The notes under the pieces were generated by a model. It saw nothing but the letters and a program-made list of their open reading frames with translations. It was not told where the DNA came from and did no database searches. A DNA stretch of 64,000 nt. Origin: Escherichia coli. Lineage in GTDB: Bacteria > Pseudomonadota > Gammaproteobacteria > Enterobacterales > Enterobacteriaceae. The DNA lies in NCBI RefSeq assembly GCF_013315695.1, contig NZ_CP054353.1, one strand, 5' to 3'. Position numbers and translations under genes: made by a program. Of the stretch, positions 17,885 through 61,946 are shown piece after piece (the first letter of the stretch is position 1; every line of letters begins with the position of its first letter).

Positions 17885-17900
17885 GTGCGATTCAGAGTTC

Positions 17901-17925
17901 AAGGCCTTCTCCCGGAGAAGGCCTT
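17901..17925. terminator. Hairpin between convergent ilvC and ppiC
   Basis: AAGGCCTTCT CCCGG AGAAGGCCTT palindrome. Confidence 0.7.
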
Positions 17926-17929
17926 GCTG

Positions 17930-24770: not shown

Positions 24771-26030
24771 ATGAATCTTACCGAATTAAAGAATACGCCG
24801 GTTTCTGAGCTGATCACTCTCGGCGAAAATATGGGGCTGGAAAACCTGGCTCGTATGCGTAAGCAGGACATTATTTTTGCCATCCTGAAGCAGCACGCAA
24901 AGAGTGGCGAAGATATCTTTGGTGATGGCGTACTGGAGATATTGCAGGATGGATTTGGTTTCCTCCGTTCCGCAGACAGCTCCTACCTCGCCGGTCCTGA
25001 TGACATCTACGTTTCCCCTAGCCAAATCCGCCGTTTCAACCTCCGCACTGGTGATACCATCTCTGGTAAGATTCGCCCGCCGAAAGAAGGTGAACGCTAT
25101 TTTGCGCTGCTGAAAGTTAACGAAGTTAACTTCGACAAACCTGAAAACGCCCGCAACAAAATCCTCTTTGAGAACTTAACCCCGCTGCACGCAAACTCTC
25201 GTCTGCGTATGGAACGTGGTAACGGTTCTACGGAAGATTTAACCGCTCGCGTACTGGATCTGGCATCACCTATCGGTCGTGGTCAGCGTGGTCTGATTGT
25301 GGCACCGCCGAAAGCCGGTAAAACCATGCTGCTGCAGAACATTGCTCAGAGCATTGCTTACAACCACCCGGATTGCGTACTGATGGTTCTGCTGATCGAC
25401 GAACGTCCGGAAGAAGTAACCGAGATGCAGCGTCTGGTTAAAGGTGAAGTTGTTGCTTCTACCTTTGACGAACCCGCATCTCGCCACGTTCAGGTTGCGG
25501 AAATGGTGATCGAGAAGGCGAAACGCCTGGTTGAGCACAAGAAAGACGTTATCATTCTGCTCGACTCCATCACTCGTCTGGCGCGCGCTTACAACACCGT
25601 TGTTCCGGCGTCAGGTAAAGTGTTGACCGGTGGTGTGGACGCCAACGCCCTGCATCGTCCGAAACGCTTCTTCGGTGCGGCGCGTAACGTGGAAGAGGGC
25701 GGCAGCCTGACCATTATCGCGACGGCGCTTATCGATACCGGTTCTAAAATGGACGAAGTTATCTACGAAGAGTTTAAAGGTACAGGCAACATGGAACTGC
25801 ACCTCTCTCGTAAGATCGCTGAAAAACGCGTCTTCCCGGCTATCGACTACAACCGTTCCGGTACCCGTAAAGAAGAGCTGCTCACGACTCAGGAAGAACT
25901 GCAGAAAATGTGGATCCTGCGCAAAATCATTCACCCGATGGGCGAAATCGATGCAATGGAATTCCTCATTAATAAACTGGCAATGACCAAGACCAATGAC
26001 GATTTCTTCGAAATGATGAAACGTTCATAA
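24771..26030 (+). CDS. rho: Transcription termination factor Rho
   Basis: ORF 24699-26030; start at the ATG giving [40 protein letters not shown]... (419 aa). Confidence 0.97.
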
Positions 26031-26045
26031 ATTTGTCTTATGCCA

Positions 26046-26080
26046 AAAACGCCACGTGTTTACGTGGCGTTTTGCTTTTA
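26046..26080 (+). terminator. Intrinsic terminator after rho
   Basis: AACGCCACGT GTTT ACGTGGCGTT hairpin followed by a T-rich tract. Confidence 0.8.
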
Positions 26081-26269
26081 TATCTGTAATCTTAATGCCG
26101 CGCTGGCGATGCTAGGAAAATTCCTGGAATTTGCTGGTGTGTTATGCAATTTGCATATCAAATGGTTAATTTTTGCACAGGACTGGTGGGTTCGGAACGG
26201 ACTTTCCCTTCTGAATAAAGGTCTTCGTGGTTATACTTCTGCTAATAATTTTCTCTGAGAGCATGCATT

Positions 26270-27373
26270 GTGAATTTACTGACAGTGAGTACTGATCTCA
26301 TCAGTATTTTTTTATTCACGACACTGTTTCTGTTTTTTGCCCGTAAGGTGGCAAAAAAAGTCGGTTTAGTGGATAAACCAAACTTCCGCAAACGTCACCA
26401 GGGATTGATACCTCTCGTTGGGGGGATTTCGGTTTACGCAGGGATTTGCTTCACGTTCGGAATTGTCGATTACTATATTCCGCATGCATCTCTCTATCTC
26501 GCTTGTGCCGGTGTGCTTGTTTTCATTGGCGCGCTGGATGACCGTTTTGATATCAGCGTAAAAATCCGTGCCACCATACAGGCCGCTGTTGGCATTGTTA
26601 TGATGGTGTTCGGCAAACTTTATCTCAGTAGCCTGGGTTATATCTTTGGCTCCTGGGAGATGGTGCTCGGACCGTTTGGTTACTTCCTGACGCTATTTGC
26701 CGTCTGGGCGGCAATTAATGCGTTCAACATGGTTGATGGCATTGATGGCTTGCTGGGCGGGTTGTCCTGCGTCTCGTTTGCAGCAATCGGTATGATTTTG
26801 TGGTTCGACGGGCAAACCAGTCTCGCAATCTGGTGCTTTGCGATGATCGCCGCCATCCTGCCATACATCATGCTTAACCTTGGTATCCTGGGTCGCCGCT
26901 ACAAAGTCTTTATGGGGGATGCGGGCAGTACGCTGATTGGTTTTACCGTTATCTGGATCCTGCTCGAAACGACCCAGGGCAAAACTCATCCCATCAGCCC
27001 GGTTACCGCTTTGTGGATAATCGCCATTCCACTAATGGATATGGTGGCGATTATGTACCGTCGCCTGCGTAAAGGCATGAGCCCATTCTCTCCTGACCGT
27101 CAGCATATTCACCATTTGATCATGCGTGCCGGGTTTACTTCCCGCCAGGCGTTTGTGCTGATTACCCTTGCCGCAGCACTGCTCGCTTCCATTGGCGTGC
27201 TGGCAGAATATTCTCATTTTGTCCCGGAGTGGGTCATGCTGGTGCTCTTTTTGCTAGCATTCTTCCTCTATGGATATTGCATCAAGCGTGCCTGGAAAGT
27301 TGCTCGCTTTATTAAGCGCGTAAAACGCAGACTGCGTAGAAATCGTGGTGGCAGCCCCAATTTAACCAAATAA
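26270..27373 (+). CDS. wecA: UDP-GlcNAc:undecaprenyl-phosphate GlcNAc-1-phosphate transferase
   Basis: 367-aa polytopic membrane ORF starting at GTG (MNLLTVSTDLISIF...). Confidence 0.93.
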   Translation: MNLLTVSTDLISIFLFTTLFLFFARKVAKKVGLVDKPNFRKRHQGLIPLVGGISVYAGICFTFGIVDYYIPHASLYLACAGVLVFIGALDDRFDISVKIRATIQAAVGIVMMVFGKLYLSSLGYIFGSWEMVLGPFGYFLTLFAVWAAINAFNMVDGIDGLLGGLSCVSFAAIGMILWFDGQTSLAIWCFAMIAAILPYIMLNLGILGRRYKVFMGDAGSTLIGFTVIWILLETTQGKTHPISPVTALWIIAIPLMDMVAIMYRRLRKGMSPFSPDRQHIHHLIMRAGFTSRQAFVLITLAAALLASIGVLAEYSHFVPEWVMLVLFLLAFFLYGYCIKRAWKVARFIKRVKRRLRRNRGGSPNLTK

Positions 27374-27384
27374 ATGAGGATGTG

Positions 27385-28431
27385 ATGACACAACCAATGC
27401 CTGGGAAACCGGCCGAAGACGCTGAAAATGAACTGGATATTCGTGGGTTGTTTCGTACCTTGTGGGCTGGGAAGCTGTGGATTATTGGCATGGGGCTGGC
27501 GTTTGCGTTAATCGCGCTGGCGTATACTTTTTTTGCTCGCCAGGAGTGGAGCTCGACAGCGATTACCGATCGTCCAACGGTGAATATGCTGGGGGGATAT
27601 TACTCACAGCAGCAATTTTTGCGTAACCTGGATGTCCGTTCAAACATGGCTTCTGCCGACCAACCATCGGTCATGGACGAAGCCTATAAAGAGTTTGTTA
27701 TGCAACTGGCCTCGTGGGATACCCGCAGAGAGTTCTGGCTGCAAACCGACTATTACAAGCAGCGGATGGTGGGCAACAGCAAAGCAGATGCGGCGTTGCT
27801 GGATGAAATGATCAACAACATCGTGTTTATTCCCGGTGACTTCACCCGCGCGGTCAATGACAGCGTGAAGCTGATTGCCGAAACTGCGCCTGACGCTAAT
27901 AACCTGTTACGTCAGTATGTTGCTTTTGCCAGCCAGCGTGCAGCCAGCCATCTGAATGATGAGCTGAAAGGCGCATGGGCGGCACGCACCATCCAGATGA
28001 AAGCTCAGGTGAAGCGTCAGGAAGAGGTGGCGAAAGCCATCTACGATCGCCGGATGAACAGTATTGAACAGGCGCTGAAAATTGCTGAGCAGCATAATAT
28101 TTCGCGCAGTGCGACAGATGTGCCTGCCGAGGAATTACCTGATTCAGAAATGTTCCTGCTTGGGCGTCCAATGCTCCAGGCTCGACTGGAAAATTTACAG
28201 GCCGTCGGTCCGGCCTTTGATCTCGACTATGATCAGAATCGGGCCATGTTAAACACCCTGAATGTTGGTCCAACCCTGGATCCGCGTTTTCAGACCTATC
28301 GCTATTTGCGTACGCCGGAAGAACCGGTAAAACGCGATAGCCCACGTCGTGCCTTCCTGATGATTATGTGGGGCATTGTCGGGGGGCTGATCGGGGCTGG
28401 TGTCGCATTAACCCGCCGTTGCTCGAAATAG
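27385..28431 (+). CDS. wzzE: ECA polysaccharide chain-length modulation protein
   Basis: ORF 27382-28431; ATG at 27385 after a GAGGA RBS (348 aa). Confidence 0.93.
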
Positions 28432-28441
28432 CAACACTGCT

Positions 28442-28467
28442 GCGGCGAGCGCAAAGGCGCTCGCCGC
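28442..28467 (+). terminator. Perfect 11-bp-stem hairpin between wzzE and wecB (possible intra-operon attenuator or partial terminator)
   Basis: GCGGCGAGCGC AAAG GCGCTCGCCGC followed by TTATT. Confidence 0.5.
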
Positions 28468-28486
28468 TTATTCGAAGAGAATCGAT

Positions 28487-29617
28487 GTGAAAGTACTGAC
28501 TGTATTTGGTACGCGCCCGGAAGCCATCAAGATGGCTCCGTTGGTGCATGCGTTGGCAAAAGATCCTTTTTTTGAGGCTAAAGTTTGCGTCACTGCGCAG
28601 CATCGGGAGATGCTCGATCAGGTGCTGAAACTCTTTTCCATTGTACCTGACTACGATCTCAACATAATGCAGCCAGGACAGGGCCTGACAGAGATAACCT
28701 GTCGGATTCTGGAAGGGCTAAAACCTATTCTTGCCGAGTTCAAACCAGACGTCGTGCTGGTTCACGGCGATACTACTACAACGCTGGCAACCAGCCTGGC
28801 GGCGTTTTATCAGCGTATTCCAGTTGGTCACGTTGAGGCAGGTCTGCGCACGGGCGATCTCTATTCGCCGTGGCCGGAAGAGGCTAACCGTACATTGACC
28901 GGGCATCTGGCGATGTATCACTTCTCTCCAACCGAAACTTCCCGGCAAAACTTACTGCGTGAAAACGTTGCTGACAGCCGAATCTTCATTACCGGTAATA
29001 CTGTCATCGATGCACTGTTATGGGTGCGTGACCAGGTGATGAGCAGCGACACGCTGCGTTCAGAACTGGCGGCAAATTACCCGTTTATCGACCCCGATAA
29101 AAAGATGATTCTGGTGACCGGTCACAGGCGTGAGAGCTTCGGTCGTGGCTTTGAAAAAATCTGCCAGGCGCTGGCAGACATCGCCACCACGCACCAGGAC
29201 ATCCAGATTGTCTATCCGGTGCATCTCAACCCGAACGTCAGAGAGCCGGTCAATCGCATTCTGGGGCATGTGAAAAATGTCATTCTGATCGATCCCCAGG
29301 AGTATTTACCGTTTGTCTGGCTGATGAACCACGCCTGGCTGATTTTGACCGACTCAGGCGGCATTCAGGAAGAAGCGCCTTCGCTGGGGAAACCGGTGCT
29401 GGTGATGCGCGATACCACTGAGCGTCCGGAAGCGGTGACAGCGGGGACGGTGCGTCTGGTCGGCACGGATAAGCAGCGAATTGTCGAGGAAGTGACGCGT
29501 CTTTTAAAAGACGAAAACGAATATCAAGCTATGAGCCGCGCCCATAACCCGTATGGTGATGGTCAGGCATGCTCTCGCATTCTGGAAGCGTTAAAAAATA
29601 ATCGGATATCACTATGA
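28487..29617 (+). CDS. wecB: UDP-N-acetylglucosamine 2-epimerase
   Basis: 376-aa ORF, GTG start ([19 protein letters not shown]...). Confidence 0.95.
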
Positions 29618-30876
29618 GTTTTGCGACCATTTCTGTTATCGGACTGGGTTACATCGGGCTGCCTACAGCAGCTGCGTTTGCCTCAAGGCAAAAACAGGTG
29701 ATTGGTGTCGATATCAACCAACACGCGGTTGATACCATCAATCGTGGCGAAATCCATATCGTCGAGCCTGATTTGGCGAGCGTAGTAAAAACTGCCGTAG
29801 AAGGCGGTTTTTTACGAGCGAGCACGACGCCAGTTGAAGCGGATGCCTGGCTGATTGCTGTACCCACGCCGTTTAAAGGCGATCATGAGCCAGATATGAC
29901 CTACGTTGAATCGGCTGCTCGCTCCATTGCGCCAGTGCTGAAAAAAGGCGCGCTGGTGATCCTTGAATCCACCTCGCCGGTGGGGTCAACCGAGAAGATG
30001 GCAGAATGGTTAGCAGAGATGCGTCCAGATCTCACTTTCCCACAGCAGGTGGGCGAGTTGGCGGACGTCAACATTGCTTACTGCCCGGAACGCGTGTTAC
30101 CGGGCCAGGTTATGGTTGAGCTGATTAAAAACGATCGCGTGATTGGTGGTATGACACCGGTTTGTTCGGCCCGCGCCAGCGAACTGTACAAAATTTTCCT
30201 CGAAGGTGAGTGTGTCGTCACTAACTCGCGGACGGCGGAAATGTGTAAGCTCACCGAAAACAGCTTCCGCGATGTGAATATCGCTTTTGCTAACGAACTG
30301 TCGCTGATTTGTGCCGATCAGGGAATTAACGTCTGGGAACTGATTCGCCTGGCGAATCGTCACCCTCGCGTTAATATTCTTCAGCCTGGTCCTGGCGTGG
30401 GCGGTCACTGCATTGCTGTTGATCCGTGGTTTATCGTGGCACAGAACCCGCAGCAGGCGCGGCTTATCCGTACCGCGCGCGAAGTGAACGATCACAAACC
30501 GTTCTGGGTTATCGATCAGGTGAAAGCGGCGGTTGCCGACTGCCTTGCTGCTACCGATAAACGCGCCAGTGAACTGAAAATCGCCTGCTTTGGTCTGGCG
30601 TTTAAACCGAATATTGATGACCTGCGCGAAAGCCCGGCGATGGAAATCGCTGAACTGATCGCCCAGTGGCATAGCGGCGAAACGCTGGTTGTTGAGCCTA
30701 ACATCCACCAGTTGCCGAAAAAACTGACCGGGCTTTGTACTCTGGCGCAGCTTGACGAGGCGCTGGCAACGGCAGATGTGCTGGTGATGTTGGTCGATCA
30801 TAGTCAGTTCAAGGTTATCAATGGCGACAACGTCCATCAGCAGTATGTCGTCGATGCCAAAGGAGTCTGGCGCTGA
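29614..30876 (+). CDS. wecC: UDP-N-acetyl-D-mannosamine dehydrogenase
   Basis: 420-aa ORF with N-terminal Rossmann GxGxxG; overlaps the wecB stop. Confidence 0.95.
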
Positions 30877-31943
30877 TGAGAAAGATTCTGATAACAGGTG
30901 GTGCCGGGTTTATTGGCTCAGCGCTGGTGCGTTATATCATCAACGAAACGAGCGACGCGGTGATAGTGGTCGATAAGCTGACCTACGCCGGAAATCTGAT
31001 GTCGCTGGCACCGGTCGCGCAAAGCGAGCGCTTTGCCTTTGAGAAAGTTGATATCTGCGATCGGGCAGAACTGGCGCGCGTATTCACTGAGCATCAGCCA
31101 GACTGTGTCATGCATCTGGCAGCCGAAAGCCATGTTGACCGTTCTATTGACGGCCCGGCAGCGTTTATTGAAACCAACATTGTCGGGACTTATACATTGC
31201 TTGAAGCGGCGCGGACTTACTGGAATGCGCTGACGGAAGATAAAAAATCAGCGTTCCGTTTTCATCATATCTCCACCGACGAAGTATATGGTGACCTGCA
31301 CTCGACGGATGATTTCTTCACCGAAACCACGCCGTATGCGCCGAGCAGCCCTTATTCCGCTTCAAAAGCCAGCAGTGACCATCTGGTACGCGCCTGGCTG
31401 CGGACCTATGGTCTGCCGACGCTTATCACCAACTGCTCGAATAACTACGGCCCTTACCACTTTCCGGAAAAACTGATCCCGCTGATGATCCTCAACGCGC
31501 TGGCGGGTAAACCGCTGCCGGTATATGGCAACGGGCAGCAAATCCGTGACTGGCTGTATGTTGAAGATCACGCCCGCGCGCTGTATTGCGTGGCGACCAC
31601 CGGGAAAGTCGGTGAAACCTATAATATTGGTGGTCACAACGAGCGTAAGAATCTCGATGTTGTGGAAACCATTTGCGAGCTGCTGGAAGAACTGGCTCCG
31701 AATAAGCCGCACGGCGTGGCGCACTATCGTGACCTGATCACCTTTGTCGCTGACCGTCCGGGGCATGATCTGCGTTATGCCATTGATGCTTCGAAAATTG
31801 CCCGTGAACTTGGCTGGCTGCCGCAGGAAACCTTTGAAAGTGGAATGCGTAAAACGGTGCAGTGGTATCTGGCTAATGAAATCTGGTGGAAGCAGGTGCA
31901 GGACGGCAGCTATCAGGGCGAGCGTTTAGGTCTGAAAGGCTAA
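30876..31943 (+). CDS. rffG: dTDP-glucose 4,6-dehydratase
   Basis: 355-aa ORF with [11 protein letters not shown]-binding motif. Confidence 0.95.
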
Positions 31944-44728: not shown

Positions 44729-44935
44729 GTAGATGCTCATTCCATCTCTTATGTTCGCCTTAGTGCCTCATAAACTCCGGAATGACGCAGAGCCGTTTAC
44801 GGTGCTTATCGTCCACTGACAGATGTCGCTTATGCCTCATCAGACACCATGGACACAACGTTGAGTGAAGCACCCACTTGTTGTCATACAGACCTGTTTT
44901 AACGCCTGCTCCGTAATAAGAGCAGGCGTTTTTTT
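44729..44935 (+). ncRNA. glmZ: Small regulatory RNA GlmZ
   Basis: GTAGATGCTCATTCCATCTCTTATGTTCGCCTTAGTGCCTCATAAACTCCGGAATGACGC... ending in the CGCCTGCTCCGTAATAAGAGCAGGCG T7 terminator; about 207 nt. Confidence 0.9.
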
Positions 44936-60520: not shown

Positions 60521-61946
60521 TAATGCCAGTCAGTTAAGCAACTGACTGGCTCTTTTTCGGGGCTGTGGGGTATTTCCAGGGCCTCTCCTTTACCACTCTC
60601 GGGAAGGCCCTTTCCCTTCTTGTCGGTAATTTCACAAGTTGTCCCATACTTGCAAGATCGCGCATCAGCTCCGGTATACGTCCCGGTGAAGCGCCCTGCA
60701 ATGTCATCAGCATTCTCATCACCATTCCGCATGATTCTGAGAAACTCAGTTGATTCGGCCAGTAACCTTTCAGATGTTCCGCCATTTTAATCATCTGATA
60801 TCTCACCAGATTATAAGCCAGTAAGACACCCCACAGCTCTTGCTCCACAAGCTCCGGTTTTTTACTTCTCAGCGTCAGCCTGCTCAGTTGCATCGTCTGT
60901 TTTATCTCCCTGTATCCCAGTTCGATTTCCCAGCGATGACTGTACAGATCCGCCATTTCTCCTCCGGGGAAGCGCATGGCGTCCGTCATCGACGTCAGCA
61001 GATGGCAGACTTTTCCTTTGCGCGTCACGGTCAGCAGGCGGGCTGTCACTTCATTTCCCAGTCCCGGCCACTTTTTTCGTGCCTGCGGGCTGGTTTTCAG
61101 CTTCACCAGATGATCGCCTTTACCCAGTTTTCTGATCTCTTCATATTGCGCTCCCTTTCTGAGAGGTATCATCCAGTGGCGGTGTTCTCCCGCCAGGCTC
61201 CAGGCATTTAACAGTCCCAGTGAGTAATAACCTTTATCCATTAACGTCAGAGTGTTATCGCCGGTTTGTTCTATAAGTTGCTCAGCAAGCTCATTTTCGC
61301 TGTTCTTCATCGTGCCGAAGGCTGCAGCCGTCAGCAGATGGCTGGTCAGTTCCATCTGGCAGACCATTTTGACCTGCGGGTAGAGCGCCGGGTTCCCGGC
61401 ATGTGTCTGGCGGGGGAAGGCTGCATCGTTCTCTGGTGTATCCGGTGTGCGCCAGAACACACCATCGATGGCCAGCAGGGTCAGGCCGCACCAGTGCGGA
61501 TGCGGCGTGGCGTTATGCCAGAGCTGCGCTGTTTTCGTGAACACGCGGCGGACAGCCTCACTTCCCAGGCGCTGGCGGGCCTGAATAACGGCACTGGGGG
61601 CAACGAAGGGGCGATTGCCCGGCAGCATGATGTCCAGGCGATTCACAATCTGGTGAAGAGGTTCTTTACGCTCAAGCGCCATGCCAACAATACACCAGAC
61701 CATCATTTCGAGGGGAAGACGGCGCTTGCGTAGCGTTACAGTACCTGATTCGGCAAGGCAACGAGAGATGAGTTCGGGGTCGAGGTAATCCCCCAGAGAA
61801 GTCAGTGGGTTACGCAGAGAATCGTAACGGGATACCAGATCAAGAGCCTGTCCAATGTGCATAAAAAAATCCGGAAACAAGTGAGCGTTTCCGGATTCTT
61901 ACACAGCCACTGGATCGGTCAACTGATCCTTAACTGATCGGCATTA
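60521..61946 (-). mobile_element. Insertion sequence IS4, complete (1426 bp)
   Basis: Terminal inverted repeats TAATGCCAGTCAGTTAAG... and ...CCTTAACTGATCGGCATTA; single transposase ORF; flanked by a perfect 12-bp direct repeat. Confidence 0.95.
60534..61862 (-). CDS. insG: IS4 transposase (DDE family)
   Basis: ORF 60534-61880; ATG at 61862 gives [20 protein letters not shown]... (442 aa). Confidence 0.95.

Follow-up and report, generated by a model that had tools for sequence, protein, structure and literature searches.

A conserved sense-strand stem-loop between wzzE and wecB and its putative role at the 3' end of the wecA–wzzE message

The gap between wzzE and wecB in the ECA operon of Escherichia coli carries a GC-rich RNA stem-loop whose pairing is maintained across Enterobacteriaceae, and we think it somewhat probable that this stem-loop protects the wecA–wzzE part of the mRNA and defines its 3' end, acting in Escherichia also as a borderline, leaky intrinsic terminator. 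Under this mechanism, RNA polymerase mostly reads through the hairpin, as ECA synthesis requires, and a minority of transcripts end 7 nt past the stem. Such ends would have two sources: 3'-to-5' trimming by PNPase or RNase II, halted at the stem, of transcripts that had been cleaved or prematurely terminated downstream and, in Escherichia with its U-richer tail, a small amount of intrinsic termination. The stem would cap and stabilise the wecA–wzzE message, which could outlive the wecB-to-wecG part, and the output of WecA and WzzE would be partly uncoupled from that of the ECA-specific enzymes. The exonuclease barrier and any effect on protein stoichiometry are what we infer; the observations behind them are laid out below.

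Regulation of ECA is poorly understood, and a stem-loop with a mapped 3' end at this junction gives it a concrete candidate element for tuning after transcription. Its effect is probably small, and it belongs to a well-known class of element. The inputs described in a 2025 review of ECA synthesis and its regulation are few, act at promoters or by feedback, and include none inside the operon; the review makes no mention of a hairpin, terminator or internal control at the wzzE–wecB junction; our literature search likewise found no experiment on the hairpin. Stem-loops of this kind are familiar; the literature searched had not drawn attention to this one in the ECA operon.

The hairpin and its operon setting

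The window, by which we mean the whole 64,000-nt (64-kb) stretch of E. coli DNA that was analysed, contains the genes trxA-rhoL-rho-wecA-wzzE-wecB-wecC-rffG and onward, in this order (RefSeq annotation). Among the twelve wec (ECA) genes, the 55-nt gap between wzzE and wecB is the only one longer than 18 nt. WecA has a role in O-antigen synthesis too, and an element placed at the single gap of the operon, right after wecA–wzzE, could tune shared against ECA-specific functions. The features of the junction are as follows.

27385–28431, plus strand: wzzE coding sequence, the ECA chain-length modulator, with a TAG stop at 28429–28431 (ORF list, RefSeq annotation of identical DNA, Pfam PF02706 homologues)
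28432–28441, plus strand: 10-nt spacer from the wzzE stop to the stem, varying in sequence across genera and mostly 9–13 nt in length
28442–28452, plus strand: 5' arm, GCGGCGAGCGC, with position 28446 polymorphic (C in the window, T in most E. coli)
28453–28456, plus strand: loop AAAG, of which neither the sequence nor the length (4–10 nt) is conserved among genera
28457–28467, plus strand: 3' arm, GCGCTCGCCGC, in which G28463 pairs with 28446 and, in 164 genomes with the T allele, has changed to a compensating A
28468–28474, plus strand: tail UUAUUCG, with the published Term-seq 3' end at G28474 (Adams et al. 2021, supplementary files 1 and 3; coordinate transfer)
28475–28486, plus strand: wecB translation-initiation region, with a Shine–Dalgarno-like AAGAGAA invariant in 72 aligned sequences, then TCGAT
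28487–29617, plus strand: wecB coding sequence, UDP-GlcNAc 2-epimerase, with a GTG start (ORF list, RefSeq annotation)

On the plus strand, positions 28442–28467 read GCGGCGAGCGC AAAG GCGCTCGCCGC, an 11-bp perfect inverted repeat around a 4-nt loop, with 10 of the 11 bp being G–C and a stem energy of about −24 kcal/mol. The stem is flanked by spacers of 10 nt to the wzzE stop (which ends at 28431) and 19 nt to the wecB GTG (28487), and the sequence 3' of it is TTATTCGAAGAG. The first-pass annotation of this DNA had described just such a hairpin, with 11-bp arms and an AAAG loop, and a weak TTATT tract behind it, and the sequence bears out both; its distances of 11 and 20 nt denote the same positions as ours, counted inclusively, and the RefSeq annotation agrees with its naming of the two genes as wzzE and wecB.

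The region is structured well beyond its composition. Folded as RNA, the 81 nt of 28420–28500 gave −32.1 kcal/mol (z = −3.9), a value equalled by none of 200 shuffles. The 64-kb window has 6 distinct sites where arms of 11 bp or more pair perfectly around loops of 3–8 nt, against a mean of 0.22 in dinucleotide shuffles of it; the other five, at 11918–11945, 17900–17926, 44901–44930, 60525–60550 and 61868–61897, are probably terminators or similar elements. A permissive Rfam scan of 26000–31000 (E-values up to 10) returned no match overlapping 28432–28486, which rules out a curated Rfam family as the identity of the hairpin. Elsewhere in the operon, a strong Hfq aptamer was reported from genomic SELEX (Lorenz et al. 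2010), running antisense to wzzE at its 5' end (MG1655 3,967,056–3,967,166 by the older numbering used there, approximately 27385–27500 on the minus strand of the window), and the same study counted 11 Hfq aptamers across the whole ECA operon.

Conservation and covariation of the stem

The hairpin was present in 5424 of 5426 complete E. coli genomes, and a 40-nt query found a median of one and a maximum of two copies per genome among the 5424. The first-pass annotation called the palindrome perfect, which is true of the window allele but not of E. coli in general, as this allele is a minority carried by 621 of the 5424 complete genomes. A T at 28446, found in 3634 genomes including K-12, makes pair 5 a G·U wobble in the sense RNA, and a further combination, T with G to A in the 3' arm, restores a compensated U–A pair in 164 genomes, B and C strains included. 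The succession of C–G (621), U·G (3634) and U–A (164) at one pair is a textbook compensatory path, whose intermediate only the plus-strand RNA can tolerate. Pair 3 is mismatched in an inferred count of about 870 genomes, and this allele is still predicted to fold, at −19.4 kcal/mol.

Two side observations concern these alleles. The K-12 allele, with T at 28446, creates a GTG at 28445–28447 that lies within the 5' arm, 14 codons ahead of the wecB start and in its reading frame, where the window allele has GCG. We considered this GTG as an alternative wecB start and rejected it: it lies inside the stem, has no Shine–Dalgarno sequence and is absent from the window allele, and the resulting ORF is not conserved between genera. 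Separately, an IS200C-family element (tnpA) interrupts the junction in 1 of the 5424 genomes, that of E. coli strain 510016 (NZ_CP025851.1; locus L002, 1497–2262). The element sits directly after the hairpin and TTATT, at window position 28472/28473 between wzzE and wecB, and the sequence continues with TTATTCGAAGAGAATCGATGTG; the terminator-like hairpin of the inserted element could be polar on wecB–wecG.

To follow the junction across the family, we collected 80 species-representative loci via WzzE. In nearly all of them the wzzE–wecB gap measured 55–63 nt and the stem-loop lay 9–13 nt past the stop and about 7 nt ahead of the invariant AAGAGAA...GTG. The stem sequences themselves are clade-specific: GCGGYGAGCGC in Escherichia, GCAGTGAGGGG in Citrobacter and Salmonella, and CGATGAAGGC in Enterobacter, Klebsiella, Kosakonia and others. 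Across 76 species the median stem had 10 pairs and an energy of about −16 kcal/mol. The stem was weak or degenerate in about 5–8% of species (loci L033, L037, L050, L074 and L079). Two loci depart from the usual gap length: that of Klebsiella indica (L038, 3548–3659) has a 112-nt gap with extra structured sequence at the usual place of the hairpin, and that of Enterobacter sp. JUb54 (L056, 3548–3590) a 43-nt gap with a truncated stem.

We tested for covariation on a MAFFT alignment of 72 distinct Enterobacteriaceae sequences that was built without structural guidance. In this alignment 87.8% of the cells at the paired positions were able to pair, compared with 35–57% when the partners were slid by one to three columns. 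Compensatory (double) changes were seen at 11 of the 11 pairs, the observed values being reached by none of 500 shuffles, and RNAalifold recovered 8 of the pairs on its own. Over the seven core pairs we counted 25 G·U or U·G cells against 3 A/C cells, an asymmetry from which it follows that the folded and selected strand is the sense strand of the mRNA. The comparative evidence thus points to a sense-strand RNA stem-loop that is selected for its structure. The same wobble asymmetry, together with a U-poor tail on the minus strand, removes a minus-strand function from consideration. A SECIS element or read-through recoding signal is also dismissed, as the wzzE stop codon varies among the 72 sequences (35 TAA, 22 TAG and 15 TGA) and neither the sequence nor the length of the loop is conserved.

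The phylogenetic limit of the hairpin can be placed roughly. In distant Enterobacterales loci (L083–L092, with WzzE at 34–53% identity, one of them from Candidatus Providencia siddallii), the order rho-wecA-wzzE-wecB is kept and the hairpins have 5 bp or are missing, so that the strong stem is a family-level feature. In Candidatus Erwinia impunctatus (L086, OZ024666.1, 3541–3795), wecB is an 84-residue fragment directly after wzzE, which suggests from the gene remnant that the ECA pathway is decaying there.

Tail composition, published 3' ends and competing explanations

Escherichia tails are TTATT or TTTTT, and the UUAUUCG of the window contains 4 U in 7 nt. With fewer than 5 T in the 8 nt of its tail, the site was passed over by a simple terminator scan. 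Most other genera have U-poor tails (CTAATCGA, CAATCCGA; for example CTAATCG and CAATCCG); the 8 nt after the stem contained a mean of 2.5 T across species, and at least 5 T in 5% of species. We scored the sites with a d'Aubenton-Carafa-type discriminant, which is approximate as computed here with ViennaRNA energies. It gave +20 for the window, +13 for MG1655 with the K-12 allele and +23 for Escherichia albertii with its TTTTT tail, and was positive only in Escherichia and in two Cedecea-like species (TTTTTT), with a median of −40 over 77 species. As a control we used the rho terminator at 26046–26073, AAAACGCCACGT-GTTT-ACGTGGCGTTTT followed by a T-run. In 68 Enterobacteriaceae species its stem, ACGCCACG...CGTGGCGT, is almost invariant and always followed by the T-run, and in the same loci its discriminant was positive in 87%. 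The sequence of its stem is far more strongly conserved than that of the wzzE hairpin. Set against the constant T-run of the rho terminator, the U-poor tails show that what is conserved at the wzzE–wecB junction is a stem and not a terminator.

Published 3'-end data place an RNA end at this hairpin in vivo. Term-seq of MG1655 (Adams et al. 2021, eLife 10:e62438) lists a "primary" wzzE 3' end at 3,970,120 on the plus strand, 13 nt short of the wecB start. By coordinate transfer this corresponds to G28474 of the window, 7 nt past the stem, with the RNA ending ...GCCGC-UUAUUCG. In the supplementary files of that study the end is supported by 1179 and 1120 reads in two conditions, counts near the low end of those reported, and wzzE has three entries in the three-condition table. 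Direct RNA-seq coverage in LB at OD 0.4, taken in 800-nt windows, is given there as 176 upstream and 130 downstream, meaning that about 74% of the coverage continues past the end and about 26% is lost. With bicyclomycin the values are 359 and 364, and the drop is gone; the change is not significant, and the corresponding Rho score of 1.37 is also not significant, the call being "No". As an intrinsic terminator the site scores 2.88 there, short of the 3.0 cutoff. Term-seq 3' ends had been named as a check in the first-pass annotation, and in these tables the end recurs in more than one growth condition while most transcription reads through. An end 7 nt past the stem is equally compatible with termination and with trimming. 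Among the entries of these tables considered here, the other 3' end in the operon lies about 30 nt into wecA (rfe), at MG1655 3,967,945 or about 26299 of the window, listed for two or more conditions with 793 and 1398 reads; this end, near the start of the operon, may reflect early attenuation or processing.

The reading that we favour, a protective stem defining the 3' end of the wecA–wzzE message, matches the finding of a stable stem without a U-rich tract in most species and of a 3' end just downstream of it in E. coli. Among the functions offered in the first-pass annotation, an RNA stability element is accordingly the best fitting, with a structure conserved despite U-poor tails, a defined 3' end and a barrier that we infer. 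Against it stand a weak Term-seq signal and a small drop in coverage that vanishes, if not significantly, with bicyclomycin in the published tables; the species with weak or degenerate stems and the E. coli genomes with the pair-3 mismatch also count against it, as do the distant Enterobacterales with weak hairpins or none. A partial terminator, another function that had been suggested, is plausible for Escherichia, where the tail is TTATT or TTTTT, the discriminant is positive and the published score falls just short of its cutoff; the idea does not extend to the roughly 70 other species, whose U-poor sites score far below zero. That the element is primarily a leaky intrinsic terminator, its GC-rich stem and UUAUU freeing a fixed fraction of polymerase and lowering wecB–wecG relative to wecA–wzzE, we regard as unlikely. 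The stem is indeed GC-rich with a short loop, and the published data place the 3' end within the 7–9 nt past the stem expected of such terminators, exactly at 7 nt, with no significant Rho dependence. However, the site was not called by a consensus scan, read-through is high, and about 90% of species lack the U-tract and yet keep the stem by compensatory change, so that termination cannot be the conserved function.

The hairpin keeps a tightly conserved distance from both the stop codon and the wecB ribosome-binding site, which a pure exonuclease barrier does not need and which hints at a translational role. The hairpin might keep the wecB ribosome-binding site unpaired, or block or position ribosomes ending at the wzzE stop, and would then set wecB translation independently of wzzE. 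The spacing of 9–13 nt from stop to stem in most species and of about 7 nt to the invariant AAGAGAA and GTG agrees with this, and in silico, deleting the hairpin made wecB −14 to +5 costlier to open, by about 0.9 kcal/mol, in 86% of 71 species. That effect is small and uncontrolled, though, and any local hairpin is expected to give the same; a translational role also leaves the mapped 3' end unexplained, and a mere scarcity of indels could account for the short-gap layout. We consider it rather improbable. A related and quite improbable idea is that the hairpin is neither a terminator nor an exonuclease barrier alone, but a positional device at the transcription–translation interface. It lies about one ribosome footprint past the end of wzzE and about one 30S footprint ahead of wecB, and might there pause RNA polymerase or block scanning or re-initiating ribosomes and make wecB translation independent of wzzE. 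If true, it would explain why structure and spacing are conserved without a U-tract in Enterobacteriaceae.

The remaining explanations place the function elsewhere. The hairpin might be the 5'-terminal stabiliser or leader of a wecB–wecG transcript that arises from an internal promoter or a processing site in the end of wzzE. The inclusion rule of supplementary file 3 of Adams et al. 2021 implies a Thomason-2015 start site 20–200 nt upstream of the 3' end, a distance that puts it inside the 3' end of wzzE. This implied start site is all that the leader has to build on: a promoter scan of 28200–28480 found no promoter-like site, the Cappable-seq supplement has no entry in the range, and the reduced third-codon-position variation that we noticed at 28276–28362, in the 3' end of wzzE, is due to low-degeneracy codons. 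A leader function is in our judgement very improbable. Hardly credible is a DNA-level palindrome, a sequence-specific protein site or a functionless product of chance. The repeat is a palindrome in DNA too, and an IS200-family element has inserted right beside it in one strain, but chance is excluded by the shuffles and the covariation, and a site in DNA or for a protein is at odds with conservation of pairing alone, with strand-asymmetric wobble pairs and with a single copy per genome. The protein-binding site put forward in the first-pass annotation finds no support on the same grounds, given that loop and stem sequences vary freely while only the pairing is kept and the wobble pairs favour the sense RNA.

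Comparison with known systems

Hairpins that stabilise mRNA between cistrons are familiar from other operons. The REP hairpins of malE–malF, reportedly described by Newbury, Higgins and co-workers in 1987, are said to act as intercistronic mRNA stabilisers that bring about differential expression within the operon, and the hairpins of the Rhodobacter puf operon are said to do the same. The wzzE–wecB hairpin resembles both in its place just past the upstream cistron and in its proposed action as a shield against 3' exonucleases. Unlike the malE–malF REP sequences, it is a single-copy element without a match to the REP consensus, orthologous among species, vertically inherited and covarying. Its single copy per genome rules out a REP or BIME identity.

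Like partial intrinsic terminators inside operons, the hairpin has a loop of 4 nt on a GC-rich stem, is followed by a 3' end 7 nt on and, in Escherichia, reaches borderline or positive scores. It differs from intrinsic terminators in lacking a conserved U-tract, a stark contrast to the rho terminator that these genomes carry about 2.4 kb upstream.

The stable stem-loops without U-tracts that Dar and Sorek (2018, NAR 46:6797) described in E. coli set steady-state 3' ends and protect transcripts from PNPase and RNase II, and according to that study a change in U content can switch the type of terminator. Like them, the wzzE–wecB hairpin is GC-rich, has a precise 3' end a few nucleotides downstream and, in most species, a tail poor in U; energetically it cannot be told apart from terminator hairpins, and the U content of its tail seems to drift by lineage. 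It is unlike them in its location, as they lie at the ends of transcription units whereas this hairpin is intra-operon, 19 nt before the next start, with most transcripts continuing past it and a Rho score that is not significant. With a tail that drifts from U-poor to U-rich and back among orthologues, this one hairpin is a clean natural example of the transition that Dar and Sorek proposed between protective stem-loops and intrinsic terminators.
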